In this document: positions 9,781 to 48,676 of the stretch, one piece after another
How the letters are laid out: every line of letters starts with the position of its first letter
Numbering within the stretch: the stretch's first letter is position 1
Assembly (NCBI GenBank): GCA_964460615.1
Contig: CAYWPX010000001.1
Coordinates: 49,826 to 113,825 of the forward strand
DNA: 64,000 bases
Source of the DNA: an uncultured Planctomycetia bacterium
GTDB taxonomy: Bacteria > Omnitrophota > Gorgyraeia > CAYWPX01
Reading direction: 5' to 3'
Notes under the pieces: model-generated
Told to the model about the DNA's origin: nothing
Databases searched by the model: none
The model's input: the letters and a program-made list of their open reading frames with translations, nothing else
Position numbers and translations under genes: made by a program

Positions 9781-9794
9781 TCTGAATGTTTTGC

Positions 9795-9823: not shown

Positions 9824-9824
9824 A

Positions 9825-9841
9825 TGTTCAAAGGATGAACA
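9825..9841. promoter_or_regulatory. inverted repeat TGTTCA-aagga-TGAACA overlapping the RBS of the MarR-like gene (candidate autoregulatory operator)
   Basis: Perfect 6-bp arms with a 5-bp spacer, ending 1 nt before the start codon. Confidence 0.4.
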
Positions 9842-9842
9842 G

Positions 9843-10202: not shown

Positions 10203-10228
10203 GCCTCAAACCGAAGGAGGCGCATAGC

Positions 10229-11125: not shown

Positions 11126-11129
11126 TAAG

Positions 11130-12326: not shown

Positions 12327-12327
12327 T

Positions 12328-13125: not shown

Positions 13126-13154
13126 AGTTTTATTAAAAATGGAGTCAGCCAATA

Positions 13155-22859: not shown

Positions 22860-22860
22860 T

Positions 22861-24327: not shown

Positions 24328-24328
24328 A

Positions 24329-26926: not shown

Positions 26927-28007
26927 AATACGAGAAAATACTTATTCATGCGTCTATTGTTATAATAAACTTCGATTTGATGGCAAAGTTTTTATCTGCA
27001 ATAATTGTTCCAAAAAGTTCGAATTAAGAAACGGTATTCCCATACTTACCAGAATGGAGCGCTATTGGTGCAATTTTTCAAAAGACCTTATGAAAAAACT
27101 AAATATTGACGCTCACTCAAATGGCTGGAAGGATGCGATCAAAAAAAATATCAGCGGTAATGTTCTGGATCATATCTCGGCAAGGAACAGGGTAGATTTC
27201 AGGTTTGTGCTCCCCGATCTTAAGGATAAGTTGGTTCTTGATGTCGGTTCCATGTGGGGAGGCATTTCGGTGCCTATCTCTGATTATGCAAAAGAGGTGT
27301 ACTCGGTCGATACGACTTTTGAGACTTTGGAATTATTAAAGATCAGGGCTGAACAGGAAAATGTCAATAACCTGAATATAGCGCTTTCCTCCGCCCGGAA
27401 TCTCCCGTTCAGCGATAACTATTTTGATGTGGTTCTTTTAATAGGAGTTCTTGAGTGGCTTGGAGCGGATTATGATTTTGTAGCAAGCGAGCATTACGGG
27501 AAGCGCTCTAAAGACAGGGCAGTTGCAATAAAAAAACCCACTGAGCTTCAGCTAGAAGCCTTAAGCGAGATACAGAGGGTGCTTAAACCGGGCGGCAAGG
27601 TGCTGATCGCCATAGAAAACAGATATTTTTACAAATATTTCTTCGGTTATCCGGATCCTCATACGGCTGTGCCTTTTTCGTCCATTCTTCCCAGATTTTT
27701 GGCAAATAAGTATATGAATTTATTCAAGAACAAGAACTATCAGGAATATACCTATTCAATTTTTGGTTATAAAAAGCTTTTGAAGAAATCGAATTTCAAA
27801 AAATTCGATTTTTATGCCTCATCGCCGTCTTACAGGGAGCCGGAAGTCATACTGCCTCTTAATAACCCAAGATATATCAGATATTTCTATGAAAATTTCG
27901 GGCTAAGGGACCTGAAAGGCATAAAAAAATTCATTCCTTGGATTTTAATTAAACTTAATCTGATGAAATATCTGGTTCACAGCTACTTAATTGTCGCGGA
28001 GAAGTAA
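26919..28007 (+). CDS. class I SAM-dependent methyltransferase with N-terminal Cys4 zinc-ribbon (Trm112-like)
   Basis: CVYCYNKL...CNNCSKKF, then LVLDVGSMWGG (motif I) and VVLLIGVLEWL (motif II/III region). 362 aa. Confidence 0.65.
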   Translation: MNKIRENTYSCVYCYNKLRFDGKVFICNNCSKKFELRNGIPILTRMERYWCNFSKDLMKKLNIDAHSNGWKDAIKKNISGNVLDHISARNRVDFRFVLPDLKDKLVLDVGSMWGGISVPISDYAKEVYSVDTTFETLELLKIRAEQENVNNLNIALSSARNLPFSDNYFDVVLLIGVLEWLGADYDFVASEHYGKRSKDRAVAIKKPTELQLEALSEIQRVLKPGGKVLIAIENRYFYKYFFGYPDPHTAVPFSSILPRFLANKYMNLFKNKNYQEYTYSIFGYKKLLKKSNFKKFDFYASSPSYREPEVILPLNNPRYIRYFYENFGLRDLKGIKKFIPWILIKLNLMKYLVHSYLIVAEK

Positions 28008-28998: not shown

Positions 28999-30481
28999 AA
29001 AAATTAAAAAGGTTCTACTTATTACTCCTCCGGCGTATACCTTCAAAGATATGCCGGATATTAATCCTTTGCCACCCATCGGCTTAGGGTATTTAGCGGC
29101 AATTTTGGAAAAAAAGGGAATAGAGGTCGAGATATTCGATTCTCTTATTGAGGGGATCGGTAAGGAAGAGCTTATTGAGGATAATATAATAAGGATCGGC
29201 TCGTCGTTTGGCGATATTGAAGCGAAGATAAGGTCGTTCTCTCCTGACATTGTGGGGGTGAGTAACCTTTTTTCAAGGCAGGCCAGAAATGCTCACGAGA
29301 TCTATAAGATTACTAAATCAATAGATCCTAAAATAATTGTAATTGCCGGAGGGGCGCACCCGACAGTAATGCCCGAGAGCGTAATTTTAGATCAGAATGT
29401 TGATTTCGTGATCTTAGGTGAAGGCGAAAGGACTTTGGAGGATCTGATAGGCCACCTCGAAGGGAAAATAGATTTAGGAAAGCTTAACGGTATCGCCTAC
29501 AGAACCGGTTCCAAGCCTACGATTGTGCCGAAGATTAATTTTATACTTGATATCGATAGCCTTCCTTTTCCGGCAAGGCATCTGATGAAACTGGATAAAT
29601 ACTTTGGCCTTAGCGAGTCTCACGGAAAGAGGCGATGCAAAAGATTTACTCCTATAGTTACCTCGAGAGGGTGCCCGGTTGGCTGTACCTTTTGTACGGC
29701 ACATCATGTTTGGGGCAGGAATTTCCGTAAACGGAGCCCGGAGAACGTCCTAGCGGAGATGAGGGAGTTAAAGGATAAATATAACATCGAAGAGCTGCTT
29801 TTTGAGGATGACAATGTAACATTGGATGTGAAACGTGCCGAGTCCATCTTTGATATGATGATCTCGGAAAAACTTAATTTTAAATGGGATACGCCGAATG
29901 GTGTTGCAGCCTTTGCTTTGGACGAGAGACTGATAAAAAAGATGCAGGATGCCGGCTGCTACCATCTTAATATCGCGGTGGAATCCGGAAGTCCCAGAGT
30001 TCTTAAAGAGGTCATCAAAAAGCCTCTGGATCTGGATAAAGTCGAAAGGCTTATCAAATTTACCAGAAAGATTAACCTGGAATCCTGTATATTTCTTATT
30101 ATTGGAATGCCCGGTGAGACGCTTAAAGATATGTGGGACAGTTATAAGTATGCCAAAAAAATAGGCGTTTACAAGCCGTTTGTCTCTGTGGCAACTCCGT
30201 ATCCCGGGTCGCTTCTTTATGATCTTTGTTTGGAAAAAAAATATATCAAAAAGGGATTTTCTTTGAATGATCTATATATAACAAGCTGCAGCATTCAAAC
30301 CCGGGAATGGAACAGCGAGGATGTTAGAAAGCTTTTCTCGAAGGGGTTCTTTTATCTGCAGATGGAGCATTATAAAAAGCACCCTATTGAATTTGCAAAA
30401 AAAGCAGCAGTAGCGATCCTGAAAAACCCTATAAGGACATTAAAGAAAGTAGGATTATTATGTCAAAATATGAAAAGTTAA
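28985..30481 (+). CDS. cobalamin-binding radical SAM protein, class B, paralog 4
   Basis: KVLLITPP...IGLGYLAAIL B12-domain, then GCPVGCTFC. 498 aa. Confidence 0.8.
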   Translation: MVQNKKIKKVLLITPPAYTFKDMPDINPLPPIGLGYLAAILEKKGIEVEIFDSLIEGIGKEELIEDNIIRIGSSFGDIEAKIRSFSPDIVGVSNLFSRQARNAHEIYKITKSIDPKIIVIAGGAHPTVMPESVILDQNVDFVILGEGERTLEDLIGHLEGKIDLGKLNGIAYRTGSKPTIVPKINFILDIDSLPFPARHLMKLDKYFGLSESHGKRRCKRFTPIVTSRGCPVGCTFCTAHHVWGRNFRKRSPENVLAEMRELKDKYNIEELLFEDDNVTLDVKRAESIFDMMISEKLNFKWDTPNGVAAFALDERLIKKMQDAGCYHLNIAVESGSPRVLKEVIKKPLDLDKVERLIKFTRKINLESCIFLIIGMPGETLKDMWDSYKYAKKIGVYKPFVSVATPYPGSLLYDLCLEKKYIKKGFSLNDLYITSCSIQTREWNSEDVRKLFSKGFFYLQMEHYKKHPIEFAKKAAVAILKNPIRTLKKVGLLCQNMKS

Positions 30482-31587
30482 TGCCTGTCTCAAGGCCATC
30501 GCTTGGGCAGGATGAGTTAGCTGAGGTAGGTAAAGTTTTTGAATCGCATTGGCTCGGGTTAGGCGCGTGGGTATTGAGATTTGAAAATAGGATCAAAAGC
30601 TTCCTTAGCGCAAAATCAGTTATAGCAGTAAATACCGGCACAAGCGCGCTTCATCTTGCGCTTGATGCCTTGAATTTAAAGGAGGGCGATGAGGTGATAG
30701 TGCCTTCGCTTACTTTTGCCGCAAGCATACAAGCGATTGCTGCTTGTAAAGCAAGCCCAAAATTTTGTGATATAGAAGAGGACACGCTCAACATCGACTC
30801 GGCCGAAATAAAAAAACTTATAACAGATAAGACAAAGGCGATCATGCCTGTGCACTATTGCGGGCTTCCTTGTGATATGGACGAGATCATTAAAATAGCA
30901 AAGGATAACGATCTAAGGGTTGTTGAGGACGCTGCTCATGCATTCGGGTCATATTATAAGAACAGATTGATAGGCTCGTTCGGGGATGTTACCTGTTTTA
31001 GCTTTGACCCTATAAAAAATATCACCTGCGGCGAGGGCGGATGCATAGTGACGGGCGATGAAGAGTTGACAAAAATAATCTATAAAAAAAGAATACTCGG
31101 CATAGACAAGGATACATGGTCACGATATGAGCATAAGAGGGACTGGTTCTATGAGGTAACCGACCTTGGCTTCAGGTACCATATGAGCAATATAAACGCC
31201 GCCATAGGGCTTGTCCAGATGGATAAACTGCCACAGTTCATAGCGAAGAAGAGAGAATTGGTAAAAAAATACGATGAAAACTTCAGAAACTTAAAGGAGA
31301 TCAAATTATTGGTAAGGGATGTGGATAATATAGCGCCTTTTAATTACATAATAAGGGTTCAGAAGAGAGATGAGCTGATGAATTTCCTAAAGGAGAACGG
31401 GATAGATAGCGGGGTGCATTATATTCCCAACCATATCCAGCCGTTTTTCAGCAAATTTGACACTACCGGGCTTAAGGTTACGGACATGGTATGGAAAGAG
31501 ATAATAACTTTACCTTTGTTTTTCGATATGCTTGATAGCGACCAGGACAGGGTAATAGAATGCATAAAGAGGTTCTATAAAAACTAA
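30460..31587 (+). CDS. DegT/DnrJ/EryC1-family aminotransferase (ArnB-like in context)
   Basis: 375 aa, with sugar aminotransferase motifs (GDEVIVPSLTFAASIQA, FSFDPIKNITCGEGG). Confidence 0.75.
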   Translation: MSKYEKLMPVSRPSLGQDELAEVGKVFESHWLGLGAWVLRFENRIKSFLSAKSVIAVNTGTSALHLALDALNLKEGDEVIVPSLTFAASIQAIAACKASPKFCDIEEDTLNIDSAEIKKLITDKTKAIMPVHYCGLPCDMDEIIKIAKDNDLRVVEDAAHAFGSYYKNRLIGSFGDVTCFSFDPIKNITCGEGGCIVTGDEELTKIIYKKRILGIDKDTWSRYEHKRDWFYEVTDLGFRYHMSNINAAIGLVQMDKLPQFIAKKRELVKKYDENFRNLKEIKLLVRDVDNIAPFNYIIRVQKRDELMNFLKENGIDSGVHYIPNHIQPFFSKFDTTGLKVTDMVWKEIITLPLFFDMLDSDQDRVIECIKRFYKN

Positions 31588-31588
31588 T

Positions 31589-32530
31589 ATGCCATTAGTC
31601 AGCGTCATTGTACCGTTATTTAACAGCGAGAGATACCTGCAGGAAACGATTGCCGGCGTATTGGCGCAGACTTTCAGGGATTTTGAGATCATACTGATGG
31701 ATGACGGGTCCAAAGACAGTACCGCTAAAATCGTCAGATCTTTCAATGACCCGAGGATCAGGTATTTTTATAAGGAGAATGAAGGGCTTTCTGAAACGCG
31801 TAATAAGGCCATACGCGAATCGAAAGGAGAGCTAATAGCATTTCTTGACCATGATGATGTTTGGCTTGAGGAAAAACTGGCTAAAGAGGTCGCCTTGTTG
31901 ACGGGTAATGATGCCTTGGGGCTCGTATATTCCGACGCTTATATATTATTTAACGATAAGACAAGCGGTGTTACTTATTTTAAACGCTCAAACCCTAAAA
32001 AAGGAATGATACTGAAGGACCTGCTTTTTGATTCCGTCAATTTTATTCCGCTTCCTACGGTGTTAATGAAAAGGAAGGTGTTTGATGAGGTTGGGGATTT
32101 TAATAAAGATTTCAAGATAGGCGAAGAGTATGAGCTTTTTTTAAGGGTTGCCGAGAAGTATGAATTTGACTATGTCGATGAGCCGCTGGCAAAATATAGG
32201 ATACATAATAACAGTTTTAGTAATAAAAAAGACCTCTTTGTTAAAGAACACTTTATGATACTCGATATCTGGAAGAATAAAAGGCCGGATCTCTTTATAA
32301 GCGACGAATCAAAAAACAGGGTCTTAAGAAAAGAAGCGGATCTTTATAATGAACTGGGGACTTTTTATGCGCTAAATCTGAACAAAGATAAAGCGCTCGA
32401 TAATCTTAAGCTCAGTCTAGAAAAAAAATTCAGGAAGAATACGGCGATAAAGAAGATTTTTGTTCAATACCTCGGCGTAAATATCTTCAAAATAATATTT
32501 AACCTTATCAGCGGGCCGAAACATGGATAA
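31589..32530 (+). CDS. family 2 glycosyltransferase
   Basis: VSVIVPLFNSERYL...IILMDDGSKD is the GT2 N-terminus including the DxD region. 313 aa. Confidence 0.75.
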   Translation: MPLVSVIVPLFNSERYLQETIAGVLAQTFRDFEIILMDDGSKDSTAKIVRSFNDPRIRYFYKENEGLSETRNKAIRESKGELIAFLDHDDVWLEEKLAKEVALLTGNDALGLVYSDAYILFNDKTSGVTYFKRSNPKKGMILKDLLFDSVNFIPLPTVLMKRKVFDEVGDFNKDFKIGEEYELFLRVAEKYEFDYVDEPLAKYRIHNNSFSNKKDLFVKEHFMILDIWKNKRPDLFISDESKNRVLRKEADLYNELGTFYALNLNKDKALDNLKLSLEKKFRKNTAIKKIFVQYLGVNIFKIIFNLISGPKHG

Positions 32531-34472
32531 TAAGTTGATCAAAGAAATTAATAGATACTTTCATGATGAGGAGTCTCGTTTTTTTGATGAGCGTCATGTG
32601 AATAGGATTGAAAGCGAAGCTCTATTTTATGAGGATTTTCTTAAAAATTCCATAAAAGTCCCCGGTCGAGCCGTTAAGGCTCTTGATATCGGTACGGGCA
32701 CCGGGCTTATACCGGGGGTATTCAGTAGAATGGGCGGAGATTATGAGCTTGTAACTTCCGATATATCACTTGAGATGCTAAAAAAGGCCAAGAATAAGTT
32801 CATCGATAAGAGCATTCGGTTTGTCAATTGTGATGCGGAGAATCTGCCTTTTAAGGATAAAGTTTTTAGTATCGTTACCTGCTCGGCAGCTATGCATCAT
32901 TTCCCGTCAATAGAAAAATTTGCCAAGGCCTCGTACAGTGTTTTAAAAGACGACGGGTTTTTGATAATCGGTTATGAACCTAACAGGTCGTTCTGGAGGT
33001 TTTTGCCGGCATCGATCTATTATAGGATGCTTGCTAAGTTTAAAAAGCCGGATCCCCATGATAGTATCGATTACGAAGCCGTTACTAAGAACGTGAATGA
33101 TCGCCTTATTAAAGATAAGATCATCGGAAGGCCCTTAAGCAGAAATGAGATGCTTAAATATGTTGATATACATTCGCCGAATTCGGGGGATAGGATAGAT
33201 TATTCTAAGGGTTTTGACATAAAGAGCCTCTTAAACGGGCCATTTAAGGATTTTGATGCCGAAGTTGTGCATCAATTTGATGACATCACTATAAAAAGCA
33301 AAGTTTTTAAGTTATTCTTCCCTAAGCTTACTCCGCAGTTCAGCCTTATACTTAAAAAGAAAAATATCAGAAAAAAAGTCCTATTTTTATTCGTTCATTT
33401 AAATTTCGGCGGAGCCGAGGTGGGCCTATTGACTACCTTAAAAAACATCGATACAAAAAGATTTGACTGCGAGGTTGTGTCTATAGAGAAGAAAGGCGCA
33501 ATAGGAGAGGAGATAGAAAAACTCGGGTTTAAGGTGACATACCTGGATGATGACGCGAGGCTATTCAATCTTTCTTTAATATTTAAGATCAAGGATATTT
33601 TAAAGAAAGTCAATCCTGACATTTTGCATACATCTTTATTTTATGCCAATTTTTTTGGCAGGGTTGCTGCGATCTTTCATAAGCCAAAAGCCGTTATTAC
33701 TGAAGAAAGAAGCATGTATACGGAAAAAAAGTTCTATCATGTACTTATTGATAGAGTCCTGGCCTTTTTTACCGATAAGATAATTGTATGTTCTGAGTCG
33801 GTTTTAAATTTTACCATAAAGCAGGAAAAGATTGGCCCGGGAAAGTTTTACCTTATTTATAATGCGGTAGATGCCGCAAGATTTGATATAAAAAAATCAA
33901 AAATCGATCTAAGAAAAGAGCTGGGGTTAAGCCAGGATGATCTTGTTCTCGGTTCCGTAGGGTCCGTTATTCCAAAGAAAAATCACAGATTTTTGATAGA
34001 GTCGTATGCAGCGATCAGCGATAAGCTCAAGAACTCAACTTTAATCTTTGTCGGCGAGGGGGAATCAAAGAAGGAATTAATGGAGCTAACTTATAAGCTT
34101 GGGATAAAGGATAAGGTAAGGTTTTTTGGCCAGCGAAATGACATACCTGAACTTATGAAAGCCATGGATGTATTTATATTGCCGTCTTTACAGGAGGGGT
34201 TTCCAAGGACGCTTATTGAAGCTATGTATACAGGAATTCCGTCTATTGCCACTAATATTAGCGGTATCCCCGAGATCCTTAAGGACGGTGAGAACGGTTT
34301 TTTGATCGAGCCGGGAGACACAGGGCTTCTTACAAAAAGAATTCTTGAGTTGTCGATGGATAGAAAGCTAAGAGAGAAAATCGGGGCTGAGGCAAAAAAG
34401 ACTATCGAATCGGGGTATCTGCCTGACGGATACGCAAAAAAACTTGAAGCACTTTACGGGGAGCTCGCCTAA
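32523..34472 (+). CDS. bifunctional protein: N-terminal class I SAM methyltransferase fused to C-terminal GT4 (GT-B) glycosyltransferase
   Basis: LDIGTGTGLIPG and CDAENLPFKDKVFSIV are methyltransferase motifs I and post-I. The C-terminal EGFPRTLIEAMYTGIPSIATNISGIPE is the GT4 E-x7-E region. 649 aa. Confidence 0.75.
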   Translation: MDNKLIKEINRYFHDEESRFFDERHVNRIESEALFYEDFLKNSIKVPGRAVKALDIGTGTGLIPGVFSRMGGDYELVTSDISLEMLKKAKNKFIDKSIRFVNCDAENLPFKDKVFSIVTCSAAMHHFPSIEKFAKASYSVLKDDGFLIIGYEPNRSFWRFLPASIYYRMLAKFKKPDPHDSIDYEAVTKNVNDRLIKDKIIGRPLSRNEMLKYVDIHSPNSGDRIDYSKGFDIKSLLNGPFKDFDAEVVHQFDDITIKSKVFKLFFPKLTPQFSLILKKKNIRKKVLFLFVHLNFGGAEVGLLTTLKNIDTKRFDCEVVSIEKKGAIGEEIEKLGFKVTYLDDDARLFNLSLIFKIKDILKKVNPDILHTSLFYANFFGRVAAIFHKPKAVITEERSMYTEKKFYHVLIDRVLAFFTDKIIVCSESVLNFTIKQEKIGPGKFYLIYNAVDAARFDIKKSKIDLRKELGLSQDDLVLGSVGSVIPKKNHRFLIESYAAISDKLKNSTLIFVGEGESKKELMELTYKLGIKDKVRFFGQRNDIPELMKAMDVFILPSLQEGFPRTLIEAMYTGIPSIATNISGIPEILKDGENGFLIEPGDTGLLTKRILELSMDRKLREKIGAEAKKTIESGYLPDGYAKKLEALYGELA

Positions 34473-34474
34473 TC

Positions 34475-35539
34475 ATGAAAAAAATCGTTACTATCGTCGG
34501 TGCCAGGCCGCAATTTGTGAAGATGGCGCTTATTTCAGAGGCTCTAAAAGAACTTAAGGTTAAGGAGATAATTGTTCACACCGGCCAGCATTATAATAAA
34601 AACCTATCGGACATTTTTTTTAAAGAGCTTAAAATACCAAGGCCGGATTATAACCTTAATGTTGGATCCGGGACCCATGCCGAGCAGGTAGCCAAGATGT
34701 TAACGGGAATAGAAAAAATACTTGTCAAAGAAAACCCTTCCATAGTACTGGTGTATGGCGATACAAATTCTACTTTGGCGGGAGCGCTGGCTGCGTCAAA
34801 ACTGGGCATTACTATTGCGCATGTGGAAGCGGGATTAAGAAGCCTGCGGAGCGATATGCCTGAAGAGATAAATAGAGTCGTAACGGATAGCATATCAAAC
34901 ATCTTCTTCTCTCCTACTAAGGAGGCCATCAGTAACCTTAAAAAGGAAGGAAAGTACGAAAACGTATTTTTGGTAGGTGATGTAATGTTTGATTCTATAA
35001 ATAGATTTGCAAAATACCTGAATTTTAAAGTATTTTACCTTGATAACTATATTCTTTGCACTATCCATCGCCAGGAAAATACCGACTCAAAGAAAAAGCT
35101 GAAGGAAATATTTAAGGGTCTCGGGATGATAAAAGAGGAGATAATCATGCCTATCCATCCAAGGACATTTAAATCGCTGGATAAGTTTAAGATCAGGGTC
35201 CCTGATAATGTAAAACTAATTGAGCCGGTAGGCTATTTTGATATGCTTAGATACGAAAAGAAGGCCGCAATGATCATTACTGATTCCGGAGGCGTACAGA
35301 AAGAGGCTATGATATTTGCCGTACCGTGTATAACCTTAAGAAATGAAACTGAATGGGTGGAGACGGTTAAATCAGGAATGAATATTTTAGCGGGTTCATC
35401 GGCAAAAAAAATAGTAATGGCTTTCAGAAAATTCAGGAAATTTTCACCCAAAAAGAACCTCGGTTTAAAATACTACGGGGACGGCACTAGCTACAAAAAA
35501 ATCGCAAAAATTCTTTATAACAAACTAAAGGCCTTATAA
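34475..35539 (+). CDS. UDP-N-acetylglucosamine 2-epimerase family (WecB/NeuC/WbpI-like)
   Basis: TIVGARPQFVKMA, VHTGQHY and GDTNSTLAGALAASKLGI..AHVEAGLRS, the canonical 2-epimerase motifs. 354 aa. Confidence 0.8.
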   Translation: MKKIVTIVGARPQFVKMALISEALKELKVKEIIVHTGQHYNKNLSDIFFKELKIPRPDYNLNVGSGTHAEQVAKMLTGIEKILVKENPSIVLVYGDTNSTLAGALAASKLGITIAHVEAGLRSLRSDMPEEINRVVTDSISNIFFSPTKEAISNLKKEGKYENVFLVGDVMFDSINRFAKYLNFKVFYLDNYILCTIHRQENTDSKKKLKEIFKGLGMIKEEIIMPIHPRTFKSLDKFKIRVPDNVKLIEPVGYFDMLRYEKKAAMIITDSGGVQKEAMIFAVPCITLRNETEWVETVKSGMNILAGSSAKKIVMAFRKFRKFSPKKNLGLKYYGDGTSYKKIAKILYNKLKAL

Positions 35540-35541
35540 AT

Positions 35542-36513
35542 ATGAAAACAGTCCTTATTACCGGTGTCGCGGGAATGATAGGTTCGCATCTGGCTGACGC
35601 ATTGATCGCCAAAGGGTATAGGGTTATCGGGGTTGATAATCTTAATGTAGGTAAAATTGACAATATTGCCCATACCTTGAAGAATAAGAATTTTAAATTT
35701 GTGAAAATGGATATACTTGATTTGTCTAAACTGAAAAAGGCGGCAAAGGAAGCTTCAATAATAGTCCATATGGCTGCTTCCAAAAAGATCGGTGAAAGCG
35801 GTAGTTCTTACGAAACTCTTATAGTTAACGGAGACGGCATAAAAAATGTTCTCGAGGCTGCCAAGGCGGTGAAAGCAAAAGTGGTATTTGCCTCAACGTC
35901 AGATGTATACGGCGTATCAGAAGACCTGCCATTTAAAGAAGACGGTAATCTTACTATAGGCCCCACCGGTGTAAAAAGATGGTCGTATGCCGTATCAAAG
36001 ATATACGGCGAACAGCTCTCCTTTGCTTATTACAAAGAGTTTAATGTCCCAGTAGTTATCTTAAGATATTTCGGAGGCTTTAGCTCCAGAGCCAGTTTCA
36101 CATGGTCTAGCGGGCACATCCCTTTATTCATAGATGCGGCCTTAAGCGGCAAAGATATCATTATTCACGGCGATGGCAAGCAGACGCGCTCTATGGCGTA
36201 TGTCGATGATCTTGTGAGGGGGACGATACTTGCTATGGAGAACCCTAAGGCTGTTGGAGAAATTTTTAACATAGGGAATGATAAAGAAAGAAGCATTCTG
36301 GACGATGCTAAGCTGATAATAAAACTCGCAAATAGGAAAAATATAAAAATAAGATTTGTTCCCCTTAAGAAGGTTTTTGGAAATTATAAAGAGATCAAAA
36401 GGCGTATTCCCGATCTTAGTAAGGCAAAAAGGATTTTAGGGTACATGCCTAAGATAACCTCTGCTGAAGGAATAAAAAGAACCATTGAAGAGCGACTGAG
36501 GAGAAGAGTGTAA
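35542..36513 (+). CDS. NAD-dependent epimerase/dehydratase (extended SDR)
   Basis: VLITGVAGMIGSHL and YAVSKIYGE (YxxxK). 323 aa. Confidence 0.7.
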   Translation: MKTVLITGVAGMIGSHLADALIAKGYRVIGVDNLNVGKIDNIAHTLKNKNFKFVKMDILDLSKLKKAAKEASIIVHMAASKKIGESGSSYETLIVNGDGIKNVLEAAKAVKAKVVFASTSDVYGVSEDLPFKEDGNLTIGPTGVKRWSYAVSKIYGEQLSFAYYKEFNVPVVILRYFGGFSSRASFTWSSGHIPLFIDAALSGKDIIIHGDGKQTRSMAYVDDLVRGTILAMENPKAVGEIFNIGNDKERSILDDAKLIIKLANRKNIKIRFVPLKKVFGNYKEIKRRIPDLSKAKRILGYMPKITSAEGIKRTIEERLRRRV

Positions 36514-37205
36514 TGGAGATCAAAGATTGCCATAAAAGGCTCAAGAGGTTTTACGGAGATGTGGCATTCTGCCAAAACCGGGATATTGTCGGTCTTGTTA
36601 CCGGTAAGAAGGTTCTTGATATCGGATGCGGATATGGAAGCCTTATTAGTCATATTAAAAATGAGAGGCCGGATCTGGATGTTGTGGGGATAGACCCGGA
36701 CCCCCAGTCACGCAAGATGGCAAAAGAGCTTTATGATATAGATGTGATAGATATGTCGGTTTATGACCTGAAATTCCCGGATAATTCCTTTACGACTGTT
36801 ATATTAAGGGATGCAGTACATCATTTTGAAACAAAAGATGAGCTAGTTAAGGCGCTAAAAGAGATCAGGAGAGTGTCCTCTAATGAGTTAATTATATTCG
36901 ACCCCAATCCTAACTGGATACTAAAAATATCAAGAAAATTTATAAATCACAAGGATCCCGAAGCTCCTTATGAATATGTAAGAGAAGAGCTTGAAAAGGC
37001 AGGGTTCAAGATCAAATCTACCAGTCTTAGGGATGTTATCGCATTTCCCTTAAGCGGCGGATTTGTCGGGATAGAGCTTATCCCAAATAATAAGGTCATA
37101 AAAAATTTTGTAATAGCGCTCGATAAGGCGCTTAATACGTTATTCAAGGTCTTGAAGCTTCAGAAATTCTTTTGCTGGCGTTACATTATCCATGCAGTTA
37201 AATAG
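36513..37205 (+). CDS. class I SAM-dependent methyltransferase
   Basis: VLDIGCGYGSL (motif I) and TVILRDAVHHF. 230 aa. Confidence 0.65.
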   Translation: MEIKDCHKRLKRFYGDVAFCQNRDIVGLVTGKKVLDIGCGYGSLISHIKNERPDLDVVGIDPDPQSRKMAKELYDIDVIDMSVYDLKFPDNSFTTVILRDAVHHFETKDELVKALKEIRRVSSNELIIFDPNPNWILKISRKFINHKDPEAPYEYVREELEKAGFKIKSTSLRDVIAFPLSGGFVGIELIPNNKVIKNFVIALDKALNTLFKVLKLQKFFCWRYIIHAVK

Positions 37206-37228
37206 ATCTTAAAGAATAGGAAAAAAAT

Positions 37229-38023
37229 ATGCTTTTTTTTATTATACCGGCTTATAATGAAGCCCTGAACCTGCCATATTTATTTGAATCTATAATGAAA
37301 AAATCCAAGGATCTCGGAGAGCCCTGTAAACTTATTGTTGTAAATGACGGAAGCACGGATAACACAAAAGAGATCCTGGGATCGCTTAAAAAGAAATATC
37401 CGATAGATGTGATAAACCATAGTACCAATATGAATGTTGGCCAGGTTTTCAGGAGCGGTTTTTCGTATGCGCTAAAAGAGGCCAAGGACTCGGACATAAT
37501 AATCACAAAGGAAGCGGATAATACCGGCGATCTTGGTATATTGGATAGGATGATTAGTGATATAAGGAGCGGGGCCGATATTGTGCTGGCTTCGTGCTAT
37601 GCAAAAGGAGGCAAGATCGTCGGCACAACTCCGGACAGGTTATTTTTAAGCTCGATAGCAAATTTTCTTCTTAAAGCCTTTTTTCCGATAGAAGGCATTA
37701 ATACCTACAGCTCATTTTATCGTGCGTACAGGCCGCTTGTTTTAAAAAGAGCGTTTTATGCATTTGAAGGAAAGCTTTTGGAAGAAAAGGGCTTTGCTTC
37801 AATGGTTGAGATGCTTATTAAACTTAGGGTGCTGCCGATAAAAATCTCCGAGATCCCAATGGTCTTAAGGTGCGACTTGAGAAAAGGCAACAGTAAAATG
37901 AATAAGACGGAAACCATTAAGGCCTATTTTAAGCTGATCGCCAGGTATTTTATCTCATCAAGAAAGTTTTCGGCTGATGCAAGAAAAAGGTTTGTCGATG
38001 TTTTATCATATAAGGGAATATAG
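37229..38023 (+). CDS. family 2 glycosyltransferase, polyprenol-phosphate sugar synthase type (DPM1/ArnC/GtrB-like)
   Basis: FFIIPAYNEALNL...LIVVNDGSTDNT. 264 aa. It sits upstream of a deformylase-like gene, a formyltransferase and an ArnT-like GT-C. Confidence 0.65.
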   Translation: MLFFIIPAYNEALNLPYLFESIMKKSKDLGEPCKLIVVNDGSTDNTKEILGSLKKKYPIDVINHSTNMNVGQVFRSGFSYALKEAKDSDIIITKEADNTGDLGILDRMISDIRSGADIVLASCYAKGGKIVGTTPDRLFLSSIANFLLKAFFPIEGINTYSSFYRAYRPLVLKRAFYAFEGKLLEEKGFASMVEMLIKLRVLPIKISEIPMVLRCDLRKGNSKMNKTETIKAYFKLIARYFISSRKFSADARKRFVDVLSYKGI

Positions 38024-38026
38024 TTA

Positions 38027-39469
38027 ATGAAGCCGTTGAAGATCTATATAGAAAGGCATGGCGGTTGCCGTGAAGATATAAGATACGTTTTTAGGACCAT
38101 AGCTTCAATAATAGGATTGCCTTATCATTTTGTGAAAATCCGTAATTCAGCCGATATTATCTATTCGCCGGATATGCGGCCTGATGATAGGTGTAAAGTT
38201 TTTATTAAAGCAGACCAAAGCAAAAACTTTGAAAGGCTCTCCGGATTATCTTTTATTGAATCCGGGGGGATGATCTTTCTCGAATCCGACAAGAATAAAG
38301 AGGGCATTGTCCTCTATAAAGACAGGACTCTAGTAATAGATAATGATATTATCCATGCCTCTTATATTTTTTTGACAGGCAAATACGAGTGTTTACTCGG
38401 CAAAGAAGCATCGGGATTCCTGAAAGTTAAGAATACTTTTTTGAGCAATCAGAATATTTCCCATAAACCCCTGATTAATTTATATGCGGAATTTTTAAAA
38501 AAGCACATCAATTCAGATTTTGAATTTGCGCCAATGTGGCCGGACAAAAAAAAGTACGCGGTCTGTCTTACCCACGATGTCGATTATCCGGAAATTATAA
38601 GGATTATAGAGGCCTTGAGATTTCCGATAAAATCACTCAAGGATTTTAAATCTATAATACATATACTTAAAGATCCTCAATTATTCTGGAGGTTCGAGGA
38701 TTGGATGGATTTTGAGAGCAAGAAGGGTTTTAAATCTTCTTTTTGTTTTTGCTGTGAGAAGGGCTCGCTTCCTGAATATATTTTCGGAAGGCCCGATCCT
38801 TTCTATGAAATTAAAAGCGATAAATTCAAAAAAGTAATAGATTCGATCATAAAAAACGGCTGCGATATCTTTCTTCATACAAGTTATAATGCTTATAAGT
38901 CCCTTGAAAAATTGTGTGAAGAAAAAAGAATTTTGGAATCAATAACCGGATCTAAGGTGCTGGGGAACAGGCATCATTATTTTCATTTAAATCCCAAAGA
39001 TCCTTTGGAGACGCTCTCTTTCCACGAGAAGGCAGGTTTTCTTTTTGATATGTCCATTTCTTTTGAGACCCTGACGGGCTTTAGAAGAGGCATTTCTACT
39101 CCGTTCTACCCTTACGATTATAACAGAAAAAAGGAAATTAAAACGCTCCAACTTCCTACGTCGCTTATGGATAGCCAGTTATACCAGTATTTGGATAATC
39201 ATAGATTTTGGGATAGGAATGAATGCATCCATTCATTACTGTACAATATCAAAAAGACAGGCGGTATCTTAGTTACTGATTATCATGAAAGAGCTTGCGA
39301 CCCTGTCATATTTAAGGATTGGTTCGATTCTTATATTAGGATCATCGAAGAGGTAAGGAGCGATAATTGTTATTTTACGGGTACGGCTTCAGAGATCTAT
39401 GCTTATTTTGATAAAAGGCAAAAAATGCTGGATGGGTATTCGATAGATGAAACTTCTGATCATAACTAA
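38027..39469 (+). CDS. hypothetical protein, possibly a divergent CE4/polysaccharide-deacetylase-like (ArnD-like deformylase) enzyme
   Basis: 480 aa. Only a CLTHDVDYPE segment resembles the NodB/CE4 D-x-D motif. The placement between the ArnC-like and formyltransferase genes is suggestive. Confidence 0.3.
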   Translation: MKPLKIYIERHGGCREDIRYVFRTIASIIGLPYHFVKIRNSADIIYSPDMRPDDRCKVFIKADQSKNFERLSGLSFIESGGMIFLESDKNKEGIVLYKDRTLVIDNDIIHASYIFLTGKYECLLGKEASGFLKVKNTFLSNQNISHKPLINLYAEFLKKHINSDFEFAPMWPDKKKYAVCLTHDVDYPEIIRIIEALRFPIKSLKDFKSIIHILKDPQLFWRFEDWMDFESKKGFKSSFCFCCEKGSLPEYIFGRPDPFYEIKSDKFKKVIDSIIKNGCDIFLHTSYNAYKSLEKLCEEKRILESITGSKVLGNRHHYFHLNPKDPLETLSFHEKAGFLFDMSISFETLTGFRRGISTPFYPYDYNRKKEIKTLQLPTSLMDSQLYQYLDNHRFWDRNECIHSLLYNIKKTGGILVTDYHERACDPVIFKDWFDSYIRIIEEVRSDNCYFTGTASEIYAYFDKRQKMLDGYSIDETSDHN

Positions 39470-40238
39470 AAAAAACAGTATTTTCGGTTTAAAGCTTTTG
39501 AATGCCTTTAAAAACTCCGGCATTGAGGTGTCGTCTGTTGTTGTCATTGAGCCCTCCATTAAGGAGGGTGTCAGGCTTTTTAATTCTGTCAGAAAAAGAA
39601 TAGGCTTTCTGGATACATTTATATATACGCTTCAGATCATTTTTACCGATCTATTAAAAGTTCTCAAACTATTTATCCTGAAAGATCTGGTTTTTGATTA
39701 CAAAAAACTGGCTTTAAATGTTATTTGCGTCAAAAACCTTCATTCAAGAGAATCTCTCGAAAGGATCCGGAATGCAGGGCCGGACATTATAATATTAGGG
39801 CAGAGCGGTATAGTAAAAAAGGAAATTTTAGATATAGCTAAAATCGGAGTATTGAATGCTCATCCGGGAATTGTGCCTCAATATAGAGGTATAGACTCTT
39901 TTCAGTGGGCCGCATATTATAATGACTTCGAAAGGATCGGGATAAGCGTTCATTGGGTTAATAAGGGCGTTGATAGCGGCAATGTTATAACCGTTATTAA
40001 GTATAAGTTCACGGGTAAAGAAAAATTCTCAAATTTTGAAGAGACGCTCTATAAAATATGTATTGATGAGTTAGTAGAAGTCACAAAAAGGCTCAGATTT
40101 AAAGTTGAACCTGGTAAAGAGCAGAATTTGTCCGAAGGCGCTCAGTATTATAAGATACCCCGCAAATCATTAAAGATCGCCAAGGCAAATTTTAAGAATT
40201 TTATCGGTGAGATGAAGCCGGATAAAGGACAAGATTAA
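39447..40238 (+). CDS. formyltransferase-domain protein (sugar N-formyltransferase, ArnA N-domain/Fmt-like)
   Basis: ILGQSGIVKKEIL...GVLNAHPGIVPQYRGIDSFQWAAY matches the formyl_trans_N catalytic motif (N..H...P..RG). 263 aa. Confidence 0.7.
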   Translation: MKLLIITKKNSIFGLKLLNAFKNSGIEVSSVVVIEPSIKEGVRLFNSVRKRIGFLDTFIYTLQIIFTDLLKVLKLFILKDLVFDYKKLALNVICVKNLHSRESLERIRNAGPDIIILGQSGIVKKEILDIAKIGVLNAHPGIVPQYRGIDSFQWAAYYNDFERIGISVHWVNKGVDSGNVITVIKYKFTGKEKFSNFEETLYKICIDELVEVTKRLRFKVEPGKEQNLSEGAQYYKIPRKSLKIAKANFKNFIGEMKPDKGQD

Positions 40239-40244
40239 TATTAT

Positions 40245-41774
40245 ATGGCGCCGAAAAATATATTATCTGAAAGGTTATTCACAAAAATTATGTTTCTGCT
40301 GCTTTTAGCGGCCGGATTCTTTTTTAGGGCACAAAATCTGGGAAGGGCGCTTACCGGCGATGAATCTTTGTTGTTTGAAATATCCAATCTCCCTTTAAAG
40401 GATATTGTGCCAATGCTTTTGCAGATCGAGGCCTATCCGCCATTAAGTTATTTTTTGCTGCATTTTTGGATGTTTTTCAGTAAGAGCCTGATATGGGGCA
40501 AATTGTATTTTGTTTTGTTTGGTATGGGCAACTGTATCCTGGTCTATCTTATCGTTAAGGAATATATTGATGAAAAAGCCGGGAGACTTGCTTTGATCCT
40601 GTCAATATTTTCGCCGCTTTTAGTTTTCAGCTCACAATTCTTCAGAAGTTATGCTGATTATACCTTCTGGATGCTGTTATCATGCCTTTTTTTACTGAAA
40701 ATCATTAAAGGAAAAGCGGGGTCAGTGATATATCTTGGTTATATTATCTCGGTTTTATTGGGGCTATATACATTTTACTGGACTGCCGGGCCCATTTTTC
40801 TAGCCCAAATTATCCTGTTAGTATTTTCAGGTGAAATAAAAAAGGATATCCGTAAATTTCTGGTTTCAATTTCTGCTGTAATAATCGGTTTTTTGCCGTG
40901 GTTATTGCTTATCCCCGAACAATTGGGGAATGCCTCGATGACATTTTTTGACTGGTCGGCAAAAGGATTTAATGTCGGCGGGCTGAAGATAGGGCTTTTT
41001 ACCAGGAATATTTTTTCTTTACTCGGTTTTGACCCATATTTTTTTGTTTATCAGGGGGGCGTAACCAGGTTTTTTAATAAATGGGTGCTTTTGTTTTTCA
41101 TAGCAGTTTTTGCGCTTCTTTTTATTTTTCTTATTTTAAAGGTTTACCATAATCTAAAAGGGATGTTCAAAAACAAAGCTTTAGTGTTTTTCCCGTTCGT
41201 TATTGTTTTTATTCCTCTACTTATCTTTTGGTCAGCTATCTACATTTTTAATACTTTACCTAACGCTAAGTATTTTTCATTTTTTCATGCGATGTTTTTA
41301 ATATTCTATGTCATTATCATTAACATGCTTTGGAGAAAAAACAGGGTAATTGGAATTATAACCACTTTTATTATTATAATAATTTTCACAGCAAGAATCC
41401 CTGTTGCCGTATCTTCAGAAATGGATTCAAAAGGCGCCTCAAAGTATCTTGCGGATAATATGAAAAAAGGCGAGGTCGTGATCTATTTTAAATCATTTGT
41501 GGATAATGAGGATGATTTTACTTTTATTTCTCTGAATGATTACATTGTTTTTGATAAGGTTAGATCAGAATATATCTTTAAGAACGAACAAAGCATTGAA
41601 GACCTGGGCGGATTATTTGCAGCTAATAATAGTATCTGGTTCTTTAAGGCTTTTGGGAACAATGATATTTTTAAAGCGAATGAGCGTATAGATGGTCTGC
41701 TTAAAAAGAGGGGCTTTAAAGTAAACGTTGTAAAAGCTTTTAGGAACATAGAAGTCATCAAATATGAAAAATAA
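40245..41774 (+). CDS. GT-C fold membrane glycosyltransferase (ArnT/PMT, GT39/GT83-like)
   Basis: 509 aa, at least 10 TM segments. A GDESLLFE acidic motif sits in the first extracytoplasmic loop. It follows the ArnC-like gene. Confidence 0.6.
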   Translation: MAPKNILSERLFTKIMFLLLLAAGFFFRAQNLGRALTGDESLLFEISNLPLKDIVPMLLQIEAYPPLSYFLLHFWMFFSKSLIWGKLYFVLFGMGNCILVYLIVKEYIDEKAGRLALILSIFSPLLVFSSQFFRSYADYTFWMLLSCLFLLKIIKGKAGSVIYLGYIISVLLGLYTFYWTAGPIFLAQIILLVFSGEIKKDIRKFLVSISAVIIGFLPWLLLIPEQLGNASMTFFDWSAKGFNVGGLKIGLFTRNIFSLLGFDPYFFVYQGGVTRFFNKWVLLFFIAVFALLFIFLILKVYHNLKGMFKNKALVFFPFVIVFIPLLIFWSAIYIFNTLPNAKYFSFFHAMFLIFYVIIINMLWRKNRVIGIITTFIIIIIFTARIPVAVSSEMDSKGASKYLADNMKKGEVVIYFKSFVDNEDDFTFISLNDYIVFDKVRSEYIFKNEQSIEDLGGLFAANNSIWFFKAFGNNDIFKANERIDGLLKKRGFKVNVVKAFRNIEVIKYEK

Positions 41775-43035
41775 GATCAGTATCAAACAAATTATAATTT
41801 TAACGGTCTTTTTAGTGTTCTCTGCCGTTATTTTGAGTGTCTTTGTTTATGAAAGGGCTTCATCTAAGAACCTTTTTGTAAATTATTCCAAAAGGATCGC
41901 TGCCGAATCGGGGGCTTTTTTATCCGGGATCATTTTTGATGACAGTGATTTCAATAATTTTAGTTTCGGCCCCGATAAAGGGCAAGACAGCGATTATGAA
42001 AAGTTGCCTTTAAAGGCTTATCTTGATAGAGTTTTTGAAAATAAGGTTTTTGAGTATTCTGAAAAGAATAATTTTTTGCTTTCAGATTATGCCGGAAAAT
42101 TCCAGTATGAAAATCCGGAAAACGTGAAACTTGTCGAGTTGAGAGATAATTTCAAGCTTAAGGAACTCGTTAGACACCAAAAAGACGGGTTTGGAAGCAT
42201 AATAAAACTCGCTTATTGGGTAAAGCAAGAGATTAAAAGAGGTACTCCTAAGGATGTGGATTTTAATTTCAATGCCCTGGATATACTCAGAAGGGCCAAA
42301 AACGGGGAGAAATTCTTTTGCAGCGAATATGCGACCGTTTTTTTACAGTGTGCTTTAAGCCTTGGCTATCAGGCAAGATATGTCGGGCTATTAAAGGGGC
42401 ATGTTGTGAACGAAGCCTGGAGCGATACGCATGCCAAGTGGTTTGTAGTTGATGTTGATAATGGTATTTATTATATGAAGGATGGTTTACCGTTGGATGC
42501 CCTCGAGCTTCACGAAGCTTTTGAGAGTAAAGATCTTGATGATATCGGAATTTACGTCACATCCGATGGTGCTAAAAAATTGCACATCGACCTTCTTGAT
42601 CTGCTGTCATATTATCATGAGTTCTATATCAGGATGAGAAATGACTGGTTTTCCAATAGGTTCCCGCACTGGCACCACAGGTCCAATTCAATAATGAATA
42701 GCCTAGAGTGGAAGGATAGGTATACCCGGGATAATATCCTTATATCGAAGAATACTTCAAATAAGGATGAGCTCTATTTTCCTATCAATGTAGTTAACCT
42801 CAATGCTGATATCAAGGGTTCTAATGGCAGCAATATCAGGCTTATTCTTGATACATTTACTCCCGGTTTTTCTTATTTTTCTTTATTGATAGATGGCAAA
42901 AAAACTGATATCATTAAAGATTCAGTTTATATGTTTAATGTGCATCCCGGAGAAAATTTGCTTGAGATCTCAAGCGTAAATGCCTTGGGAGTAATGGGCC
43001 CCAGGCTTAAAGTAAGATTTTCACTTGTGGAATAG
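41764..43035 (+). CDS. membrane-anchored transglutaminase-like (TGc) cysteine-protease-fold protein
   Basis: N-terminal TM. KFFCSEYATVFLQCALSLGYQARYVG ... HVVNEAWSDTHAKWFVVD matches the Cys-His-Asp TGc core pattern. 423 aa. Confidence 0.5.
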   Translation: MKNKISIKQIIILTVFLVFSAVILSVFVYERASSKNLFVNYSKRIAAESGAFLSGIIFDDSDFNNFSFGPDKGQDSDYEKLPLKAYLDRVFENKVFEYSEKNNFLLSDYAGKFQYENPENVKLVELRDNFKLKELVRHQKDGFGSIIKLAYWVKQEIKRGTPKDVDFNFNALDILRRAKNGEKFFCSEYATVFLQCALSLGYQARYVGLLKGHVVNEAWSDTHAKWFVVDVDNGIYYMKDGLPLDALELHEAFESKDLDDIGIYVTSDGAKKLHIDLLDLLSYYHEFYIRMRNDWFSNRFPHWHHRSNSIMNSLEWKDRYTRDNILISKNTSNKDELYFPINVVNLNADIKGSNGSNIRLILDTFTPGFSYFSLLIDGKKTDIIKDSVYMFNVHPGENLLEISSVNALGVMGPRLKVRFSLVE

Positions 43036-48627: not shown

Positions 48628-48676
48628 TTTCTTTTTTGAGTTGATCGTTGTTTGGGGTATCCGGAAACTAAATTCT

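Follow-up and report, generated by a model that had tools for sequence, protein, structure and literature searches.

What becomes of the formyl group when a surface-glycan locus encodes a sugar formyltransferase and a deacylase side by side? The question is raised by ten genes (positions 30460 to 41774) in a 64-kb stretch of DNA from an uncultured bacterium, referred to here as the window (contig CAYWPX010000001.1, positions 49,826 to 113,825). A first-pass annotation had read these genes as an Arn pathway split into separate genes, in which a formyl group is added to an amino sugar and later removed. Our analysis favors a different answer, with modest confidence: a sugar derived from a UDP-N-acetylhexosamine (UDP-HexNAc) would lose its N-acetyl group, gain an N-formyl group in its place, be loaded on polyprenyl phosphate and, with that formyl group still attached, be transferred outside the membrane. 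The ten open reading frames (ORFs) match gene families or folds more strongly than chance allows, and are listed below.

30460 to 31587, + strand: DegT sugar aminotransferase of the 4-aminotransferase type (PF01041, DegT_DnrJ_EryC1, 377 bits)
31589 to 32530, + strand: cytoplasmic GT2 glycosyltransferase, TuaG/EpsE-like (PF00535, Glycos_transf_2, 117 bits; no transmembrane segment)
32523 to 34472, + strand: fusion of an S-adenosylmethionine (SAM) methyltransferase with a GT4 glycosyltransferase (Methyltransf_11 at residues 54-149, Glycos_transf_1 at residues 462-626)
34475 to 35539, + strand: non-hydrolysing UDP-HexNAc 2-epimerase, WecB/WbpI type (Epimerase_2; TIGR00236 WecB, 322 bits, cut-off 210)
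35542 to 36513, + strand: extended short-chain dehydrogenase/reductase (SDR) acting at C4 of a UDP-sugar, like UDP-xylose synthase (UXS) and UDP-glucuronic acid (UDP-GlcA) 4-epimerase, as judged from solved relatives
36513 to 37205, + strand: small SAM methyltransferase (Methyltransf_11, 64 bits)
37229 to 38023, + strand: polyprenyl-phosphate GT2 without transmembrane segments, DPM1/PpgS-like (Glycos_transf_2, 68 bits; structures of dolichyl-phosphate mannose synthase (DPMS), ArnC and GtrB)
38027 to 39469, + strand: putative VimE-family N-deacetylase with DUF7033 and a part like carbohydrate esterase family 4 (CE4), predicted to be cytoplasmic (hidden Markov models (HMMs) of DUF7033 and VimE; AlphaFold2 (AF2) fold)
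39447 to 40238, + strand: stand-alone N10-formyl-tetrahydrofolate-type N-formyltransferase (PF00551, Formyl_trans_N, 57.7 bits, cut-off 26.1)
40245 to 41774, + strand: GT-C glycosyltransferase, PMT_2/GT39-GT83-like (about 10 transmembrane segments; AF2 fold)

All ten ORFs were present in the order and at the exact coordinates claimed for them, and the gaps between them do not exceed 24 nt. Only 3 nt separate the GT2 gene at 37229-38023 from 38027-39469, whose 3' end shares 23 nt with 39447-40238; 40245 starts 6 nt further on. The enzyme types assigned in the first pass proved mostly right in HMM scans, while those of 38027 and 40245 were weak by sequence alone and gained their backing from predicted folds. 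Genes and their products are referred to below by start position.

In the route that we favor, 34475 and 35542 would shape the UDP-HexNAc-derived sugar, on which the methyltransferase 36513 may act as well. Cytoplasmic 38027 would then take the N-acetyl group off that sugar, 39447 would formylate the freed amine and 37229 would load the product on polyprenyl phosphate. After flipping, 40245 would attach the still N-formylated sugar to a glycan outside the membrane, and the products of three genes further downstream (41764, 43039 and 43920) probably modify it further. We infer the order of the two editing reactions (deacetylation before formylation), the nucleotide-sugar level at which they would occur, the identity of the sugar and the acceptor, whereas the gene families and folds, the core with its exchangeable cassette, and the pairing and fusion of this deacetylase family with acyl transferases are observed. 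The first-pass annotation had remarked in passing that the sugar may stay N-formylated, and this is the version favored by the cassette comparison and the gene fusions described next.

A conserved core with a replaceable cassette

Five syntenic loci (L084, L085, L086, L090 and L091) share a common order of genes: 2-epimerase, SDR, with or without a methyltransferase, GT2, GT-C, a transglutaminase-like gene, a gene for a 293-aa protein and one for a membrane-bound O-acyltransferase (MBOAT). The nearest annotated locus is L084, from a metagenome-assembled genome (MAG) of Candidatus Omnitrophota, many genes of which are 53-67% identical to those of the window, which suggests a related lineage. 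Both 34475 and 35542 belong to the conserved core. Orthologs of the former (47-61% identity) lie immediately 5' of the SDR gene in L084, L085, L090 and L091, and orthologs of the SDR itself (60-66% identity) are found in all five loci; the methyltransferase 36513 has orthologs in L090 and L084 (53-54% identity).

What differs between the loci is the set of genes that accompanies this core. L090 keeps the window order from its ortholog of the aminotransferase 30460 (66% identity) to the transglutaminase-like gene, with identities of 41-66%, and lacks 38027 and 39447. L085 and L091 likewise carry the core with neither a deacylase nor a formyltransferase, and in all three of these loci nothing else stands at that place. 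In L084, a small GNAT gene and a canonical PF01522 deacetylase gene are located between those for the SDR and the GT2. In L086, a cassette at 2605-8261 separates the 2-epimerase ortholog from the SDR gene; it encodes an FkbH_N protein, a radical SAM enzyme, an acyl carrier protein (ACP), a MaoC dehydratase, a 226-aa protein of unknown kind and a PF01522 deacetylase, which suggests that a glycerate-derived N-acyl group is placed on the sugar. Across the syntenic loci and the window, a deacetylase is present solely alongside acyl-supplying enzymes. Judged by gene content, the core would work without either kind of enzyme, and in the three syntenic loci that lack both genes the GT2/GT-C route shows no dependence on formylation or deformylation. 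It would be senseless to build an acyl group on an ACP only to remove it later; the acyl group of L086 should therefore be a lasting decoration, and the shared position makes the same probable for the formyl group in the window. Taken together, these comparisons suggest that 38027 and 39447 are an optional pair that exchanges N-acetyl for N-formyl on a sugar.

The wider family of 38027 points in the same direction. When GTDB representative genomes were searched with aligned homologs of 38027, 186 relatives were returned, the best of them 37% identical. Eighty loci were fetched and their ORFs compared with the window proteins; the gene directly downstream of the VimE-like gene could be called in 76. 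Around the VimE-like gene, 38 of the 80 loci carry a 37229-like GT2, 27 an AsnB-like amidotransferase, 26 a 2-epimerase, 12-18 the WbpB/D/E-like genes, 15 a 39447-like formyltransferase and about 23 a GT-C gene (PMT_2 or YfhO); the last two types also occur in L083 and L087. In about 59 of the 76 loci the VimE-like gene adjoins one for an acyl transferase, which lies downstream except for two formyltransferases upstream:

hexapeptide (LbH) acyltransferase: 21 loci, 14 of them with an AMP-binding ligase directly upstream of the VimE-like gene
HGSNAT/OpgC-like membrane acyltransferase: 16 loci
formyltransferase: 12 loci (10 downstream, 2 upstream)
GNAT: at least 5 loci
FemAB/Acetyltransf_6 (VimA-like): 4 loci
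Acetyltransf_9: 1 locus (L082)

In the window, the place of the re-acylating partner is taken by 39447, which overlaps the 3' end of 38027. The two activities are also found in single polypeptides. VimE-like and FemAB-like parts are joined in P0189, P0205, P0208 and in ORFs of L023 and L033, and a VimE-like part is fused, in both orders, to a formyltransferase of the 39447 clade in P0191 and P0204 (31-35% identity to 39447). It would be futile to fuse a formyltransferase to the deformylase that undoes its work; the fusions fit consecutive steps in which acetyl is taken off and a new acyl group put on. Furthermore, no DegT gene lies within the fetched flanks in 12 of the 14 loci that hold a VimE-like/formyltransferase pair. 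Since a formyltransferase needs an amine, the deacetylase appears to supply it in this clade. Closer homologs of 39447 adjoin DUF7033 genes (L083, L087) and more distant ones adjoin DegT aminotransferase genes (L088, L089). The cassette adjoins GT2 and GT-C genes in L010, L083 and L087, and a YfhO-type GT-C gene in L043, a short contig on which no GT2 was seen.

Based on these observations, we tentatively propose, at somewhat less than even confidence, that a VimE-family deacetylase and an interchangeable acyl donor enzyme form a portable N-acyl editing cassette that can be plugged into different glycan pathways, in this case into a GT2/GT-C unit. The donor could be a formyltransferase, a FemAB-like protein, a GNAT, a hexapeptide transferase with an AMP-ligase, or an HGSNAT-like membrane transferase.

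In Nitrospira and Anaerolineae MAGs (L023 at 9998-13302, L033 at 8663-12161, and L062), a VimE-FemAB/VimA-like fusion is followed by a distant formyltransferase (25-27% identity to 39447), a possible sign of an N-formyl-aminoacyl sugar. In Chloroflexota, the gene next to the VimE-like one on its downstream side encodes a membrane protein of about 390 aa with 8-11 transmembrane segments that resembles HGSNAT, OpgC and Acyl_transf_3, suggesting that the freed amine is re-acylated across the membrane; loci with an HGSNAT-like partner include L018, L021, L022, L027, L029, L030, L034, L038, L052, L067, L070, L073 and L074. The trio of AMP-binding ligase, VimE-like protein and hexapeptide acyltransferase of about 330 aa, seen in 14 loci (e.g., L008, L014, L016, L017, L031 and L037), implies that an activated, non-acetyl acyl group is installed.

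The proposed editing pair and lipid-carrier enzymes

The 38027 protein had been put forward as an ArnD-like deformylase candidate. Its CE4-like fold held up; its kinship with ArnD by sequence did not. No match to Polysacc_deac_1 (PF01522) was found at E <= 0.01, and none to the NCBIfam ArnD model. Instead, the protein matched DUF7033 (29.7 bits, above the cut-off of 27) and the NCBIfam model of VimE, a UDP-2,3-diacetamido-2,3-dideoxy-glucuronate deacetylase (NF053580; 87.7 bits, cut-off 440), and on these scores it is best regarded as a relative of VimE, not an ortholog. A profile of its family reached 3rxz alone among solved CE4 proteins (35 bits), not ArnD. The AF2 model (pLDDT 90) likewise had 3rxz as its best Foldseek match, through a CE4/NodB-like domain (E 6e-10), with PuuE, 1z7a and chitin deacetylases further down and Salmonella ArnD (8t0j) at rank 10 (E 5e-6). 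Invariant residues comprise a THDVD motif (H183, D184, D186), H284, R315, H317 and H420, so that a NodB-type fold is combined with conserved Asp and His residues that may bind metal. Neither a transmembrane segment nor a signal peptide was predicted for 38027. The DUF7033/VimE-like family comprises about 2,100 clusters at E <= 1e-10. In the literature searched, we found no mention of DUF7033 and no newer paper with a VimE enzyme assay.

The call of a stand-alone formyltransferase at 39447 was confirmed by its match to PF00551. The protein has 263 aa, and all 24 homologs are 228-281 aa long and carry PF00551 only. Residues N137, H139 and D176 are invariant in its clade and align with those of Fmt, PurN and GDP-perosamine formyltransferase; this Asn-His-Asp set, together with the glycan-locus context, points to a sugar N-formyltransferase. 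A housekeeping Fmt or PurN was considered and rejected: the score against Fmt (TIGR00460) was 47.6 bits with a cut-off of 201.5, no Formyl_trans_C domain is present, and the length and PF00551-only architecture of the homologs do not fit. The protein is thus not grouped with Met-tRNA formyltransferases.

For 37229, the proposed role as a polyprenyl-phosphate sugar synthase is supported. All seven of its PDB matches are to DPMS, ArnC or GtrB, led by Pyrococcus DPMS (5mlz, 62 bits over residues 4-239) and followed by ArnC (36 bits) and GtrB (34 bits). Against NCBIfam it scored 31.6 bits for PpgS and 39.8 bits for ArnC. No transmembrane segment was predicted, so it lacks the C-terminal transmembrane helices of ArnC; DPM1 and PpgS are GT2s likewise devoid of such segments. 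Its specific similarity and its genetic coupling to a GT-C both place it among the polyprenyl-phosphate GT2s, with a predicted lipid acceptor.

The scans that had been proposed as a check gave a mixed result, as PF00535 matched both GT2 proteins whereas PF13231 (PMT_2) on 40245 remained below threshold (21.8 bits, cut-off 26.1); most orthologs of 40245 do carry PF13231. The AF2 model of 40245 (pLDDT 86) settles the class, with ArnT (5ezm) as the top Foldseek match (E 2e-6, TM-scores 0.55/0.52) and STT3/PglB oligosaccharyltransferases, Pmt, Emb and ALG9 after it. The protein is therefore polytopic and of GT-C fold, and its first outer loop bears an acidic motif (D39-E40, invariant); P65-P66 is conserved. 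An ArnT-like GT-C, as claimed, is accordingly borne out by structure. The NCBI gene call for this protein (P0115) begins 15 codons downstream of the ATG at 40245. Orthologs in the five syntenic loci are 34-45% identical. A phmmer search of the three GT-C proteins of the window against the ORFs of related loci gave no match for 40245, and the GT-Cs, being too divergent for phmmer, were traced by transmembrane-segment counting, clustering and Pfam searches of cluster representatives. At 38-41% identity when compared gene by gene with these loci, the GT-C diverges faster than most other shared core genes (53-67% identity in the closest loci), which perhaps tracks changes of donor or acceptor.

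In all five syntenic loci, an ortholog of 37229 (40-62% identity) lies immediately 5' of the GT-C gene, and in four of them the GT2 stop overlaps the GT-C start. This is good evidence for a pair of donor synthase and transferase. The annotators' proposal of lipid-linked delivery and extracytoplasmic decoration is backed both by this adjacency and by the two folds, from which we soundly infer that one sugar would be delivered on a lipid carrier to an extracytoplasmic acceptor.

Among solved structures, the SDR 35542 is closest to BcUGAepi (6zl6, 150 bits), 8vr2 (148 bits) and human UXS1 (145 bits), with the ArnA C-terminal domain at 89 bits. The nearly equal scores against UDP-GlcA 4-epimerase and UXS1 leave both an epimerase type and a C4-oxidase/decarboxylase type in view. 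Its motifs are STSDVYG and YAVSK; the acidic residue in the former is as in UXS and ArnA. Nothing relevant to PDB 8VR2 was found in the literature searched.

Alternative routes and known systems

With these enzymes in mind, the original reading can be weighed. In an Arn-type route, 35542 would oxidise, and perhaps decarboxylate, a UDP-uronic acid, 30460 would aminate C4, 39447 would formylate the amine, 37229 would load the sugar on undecaprenyl phosphate, 38027 would deformylate it on the lipid and 40245 would transfer it as a cationic amino sugar. Each of the six activities has a counterpart of the right broad family within 11 kb (DegT, SDR, formyltransferase, polyprenyl-phosphate GT2, CE4-fold deacylase and GT-C), and a monosaccharide on a lipid carrier is common to both systems. 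Of solved proteins, ArnB is closest to 30460 (236 bits, followed by perosamine synthase at 218); in fold comparisons, 40245 comes nearest to ArnT, and ArnD also turns up among the matches for 38027. The SDR bears the STSD motif, L010 carries all six gene types in an unbroken row, and UDP-sugar 6-dehydrogenases are encoded in the window. However, L085, L090 and L091 keep the GT2/GT-C core without formyl-cycle enzymes, L090 even with its ortholog of 30460, and an aminotransferase is missing from most of the pair loci, as noted above. The fusions would be futile in such a cycle, and where the window has its pair, L084 and L086 have GNAT and FkbH/ACP cassettes, which points to an acyl group that is meant to stay. 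By sequence, the 38027 family profile reaches 3rxz and not ArnD. NCBIfam scores also fall far below the Arn cut-offs: 39.8 against 529 for ArnC, 41.6 (39447) and 109.8 (SDR) against 777 for ArnA, and 310 against 631 for ArnB. For 30460 the ArnB-like label holds in terms of the closest solved relative and fails on this cut-off; the protein scores higher against PseC (324 bits), again under the cut-off, and its role in the module is uncertain. The module further differs from Arn in that its GT2 lacks the C-terminal helices of ArnC, no ArnE/F-like flippase is present (no small SMR-like ORF was found in the module), and sister loci do without the formyltransferase and deacylase genes; here the formyl group probably stays on the product, and the acceptor is probably a glycan, not lipid A. 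A split Arn pathway with unfused ArnA functions, and a transient formyl group removed by an ArnD-like deformylase from an ArnB-made amine, are therefore not supported, and we regard this route as the least probable of those considered. The case also cautions annotators that what appears to be a complete split Arn pathway can be a different pathway assembled from the same enzyme families.

The gene order GT2, deacetylase, GT-C also recalls trios that deliver glucosamine or galactosamine (LgmA/C/B of Bordetella, FlmF2/NaxD/FlmK of Francisella and, in mycobacteria, PpgS/Rv3779), which share with the module a polyprenyl-phosphate HexNAc synthase, a deacetylase and a GT-C. These trios deacetylate on the lipid. 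By analogy, 37229 would load an N-acetyl sugar, 38027 would deacetylate it on the lipid and the free amine would be delivered, while 39447 would formylate a different amine, e.g., the product of 30460, on this sugar or a further one in the glycan. It is consistent with this that the window, L010, L011 and L090 have a DegT gene within or close to the module, and that distant formyltransferase homologs pair with DegT genes. Unlike the module, these trios are not known to have a paired formyltransferase, and their sugar ends up with a free amine. Against the analogy, VimE-like and formyltransferase genes repeatedly form tight pairs, fusions included, in loci without DegT, and many VimE-family loci have no polyprenyl-phosphate GT2, such as those of Chloroflexota with an HGSNAT-like partner. 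Moreover, a legionaminic-acid-like cluster of Candidatus Kuenenia stuttgartiensis encodes both a deacetylase and a formyltransferase; free-amine and N-formyl forms of CMP-sugars were detected, which led the authors to place both steps at the nucleotide-sugar level (SugarBase preprint, bioRxiv 10.64898/2026.04.20.719630). That pair is likened to ours by activity, not by VimE-family membership; it acts on a nonulosonic acid as CMP-sugar, and GT2/GT-C delivery is absent from its cluster. Deacetylation on the lipid followed by delivery of a free amine thus seems quite unlikely for the window.

A third route starts from the sole named family that 38027 matches. For Porphyromonas gingivalis, it has been proposed that the Wbp product loses its C-2 N-acetyl group to VimE and then receives Ser or Gly from VimA; cross-complementation was used to test the VimA step, and the VimE activity was inferred (Veith et al., PMC7468200). 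The Wbp/Vim systems of P. gingivalis and Tannerella forsythia share with the window the DUF7033 plus CE4 architecture with its NCBIfam VimE match, and the logic of deacetylation followed by re-acylation, with VimE-VimA-like fusions in existence; the family also co-occurs with Wbp genes, the 2-epimerase and AsnB-like amidotransferases (WbpS in Wbp/Vim). The pair might therefore edit a 2,3-diacetamido uronic acid used by cytoplasmic glycosyltransferases, with the GT2/GT-C unit handling an unedited sugar and the position of the pair being an accident of insertion. A UDP-HexNAc 6-dehydrogenase, WbpB-, WbpD- and WbpE-like genes and an AsnB/WbpS-like amidotransferase gene are indeed present in the window, the co-occurrence counts given above (2-epimerase 26, amidotransferase 27, WbpB/D/E-like 12-18) are in line with it, and the core works without the cassette. 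Nevertheless, the Wbp-like genes are about 28 kb away, the cassette lies inside the GT2/GT-C unit here and beside GT2 and GT-C genes (L010, L083, L087) or a YfhO-type GT-C gene (L043) elsewhere, and L084 and L086 carry other kinds of cassette in the same module. The module also departs from Wbp/Vim in its VimE score (87.7 bits against an equivalog cut-off of 440), in a formyltransferase partner instead of a FemAB-like one, in the placement of the cassette within a polyprenyl-phosphate GT2/GT-C unit, and in a sugar that is not established as a 2,3-diamino uronic acid. In its pure form, with UDP-GlcNAc3NAcA as the substrate of the pair, this reading was initially favored; it was downgraded because the Omnitrophota-type syntenic loci tie the cassette to the 2-epimerase-SDR-GT2-GT-C unit. 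We now consider it unlikely.

Exchange of N-acetyl for N-formyl followed by lipid-linked delivery has its own difficulties. No flippase for a lipid-linked monosaccharide was identified, and a GtrA-like one was not found either. The activity of VimE itself is inferred in the literature, and neither adjacency nor fusion fixes the order of the two reactions. The position of the cassette between GT2 and GT-C would also suit action on a lipid-linked sugar, and in all GT2/deacylase/GT-C trios known to us (Arn, Lgm, Flm/NaxD) the acyl group is removed on the lipid and the amine ends up free. An ArnB-like 30460, the UXS/ArnA-like acidic motif of 35542 and two 6-dehydrogenases make a 4-amino sugar possible. 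Finally, two Bacteroidota loci combine SDR, GT2, VimE-like protein, acyltransferase and GT-C with a DegT gene, which is contiguous in L010 (formyltransferase) and about 3 kb past the GT-C gene in L011 (hexapeptide acyltransferase).

Each part of the favored route is nevertheless of a known kind. Deacetylases unmask a sugar amine for re-acylation in NodB/NodA (with NodS) and LpxC/LpxD, NodB being the founding member of CE4. Those systems differ in their substrates (chitooligosaccharide and UDP-3-O-acyl-GlcNAc), in using fatty acyl groups and in having neither formyl transfer nor a GT-C. Delivery would resemble that by GtrB/GtrA/Gtr, GacI/GacL and CsbB/YfhO, in which a GT2 of the polyprenyl-phosphate class and a GT-C add side chains, outside the membrane, to a polymer already made, and the related locus L043 pairs the cassette with a YfhO protein; these systems transfer unedited Glc or GlcNAc. 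The novelty would lie in combining VimE/VimA-type acyl exchange with GtrB/ArnC-type delivery. If the favored route is correct, an N-formyl amino sugar reaches the cell surface by lipid-linked monosaccharide transfer, of which we know of no described case. The residue added by the unit would be N-formylated in the window and N-acetylated in the sister lineage of L090, offering a natural comparison, with and without the cassette, of how N-acyl editing affects a surface glycan. The proposal would also give the poorly characterised DUF7033/VimE-like family a concrete, testable function, and would account for N-formyl and other unusual N-acyl sugars where no dedicated aminotransferase is at hand.

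The surrounding glycan locus

Beyond 41774, three further genes follow:

41764 to 43035, + strand: membrane-anchored transglutaminase-core protein (PF01841, 31 bits; one N-terminal transmembrane segment)
43039 to 43920, + strand: 293-aa N-terminally anchored protein with no family match in Pfam
43920 to 45314, + strand: MBOAT membrane-bound O-acyltransferase (PF03062, 101 bits)

Orthologs of 41764 are 47% identical in L086 and L090. Those of 43039 (65-66% identity) lie immediately 5' of the MBOAT gene in L084 and L086, and 43039 is likely a partner of the MBOAT, whose own orthologs there are 62-67% identical. The MBOAT probably O-acylates the glycan on the extracytoplasmic side. As these three genes are kept 3' of the GT-C gene in L084, L086 and L090, the unit probably extends past 41774. 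On the upstream side, the GT2 gene 31589 is syntenic in L084, L085 and L090, and the methyltransferase-GT4 protein 32523 is fused in L090 as well and split into two genes in L084 and L085.

The ten genes had been described as embedded in a glycan locus, and the window indeed proved to be one giant locus of this kind, filled throughout by co-directional, nearly gap-free genes. The ten-gene block is a side-branch module within it. Also encoded are rmlCABD, GT4 glycosyltransferases, a WecA-like initiating transferase, two Wzx-like flippases and two UDP-sugar 6-dehydrogenases.

A second lipid-linked decoration unit is located at 46820-51756 and is kept in L084. It consists of a polyprenyl-phosphate GT2 with two C-terminal transmembrane helices (46820; AglJ/PgfS/ArnC/GtrB-like), two GT-C proteins (48641, PMT_2 39.9 bits, and 50332) and a methyltransferase. 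A phosphonate biosynthesis set lies at 20189-27000, inside the glycan locus, and suggests that the glycan is decorated with phosphonate:

20189-27000 (within the set): phosphoenolpyruvate (PEP) mutase fused to a nucleotidyltransferase (TIGR02320, 338 bits, above the cut-off)
21787 and 22296: phosphonopyruvate decarboxylase, split
22861: B12 radical SAM enzyme
24329: class-V aminotransferase
25390: cytidylyltransferase
26090: CDP-alcohol phosphatidyltransferase-like membrane protein

The window holds five B12-binding radical SAM genes in all (13817, 15260, 22861, 28985 and 45333) and one SPASM radical SAM gene (12328). Equivalents of its radical SAM genes recur in L084, L085, L090 and L091, and C-methylation of sugars or phosphonates is a possible role. 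At 3869-9780, a Wbp-like UDP-HexNAc 6-dehydrogenase, a 3-dehydrogenase, a NeuD/PglB-type acetyltransferase and a DegT aminotransferase are encoded, and at 54023-55924 an AsnB-like amidotransferase of the XrtA/PEP-CTERM type (TIGR03108, 660 bits); together, these sets have the capacity for a 2,3-diacetamido uronic acid or its amide. A set of nonulosonic-acid type at 10229-13814 comprises a short NeuB (298 aa), a DegT aminotransferase, a SPASM radical SAM enzyme and a CMP-sugar synthetase.

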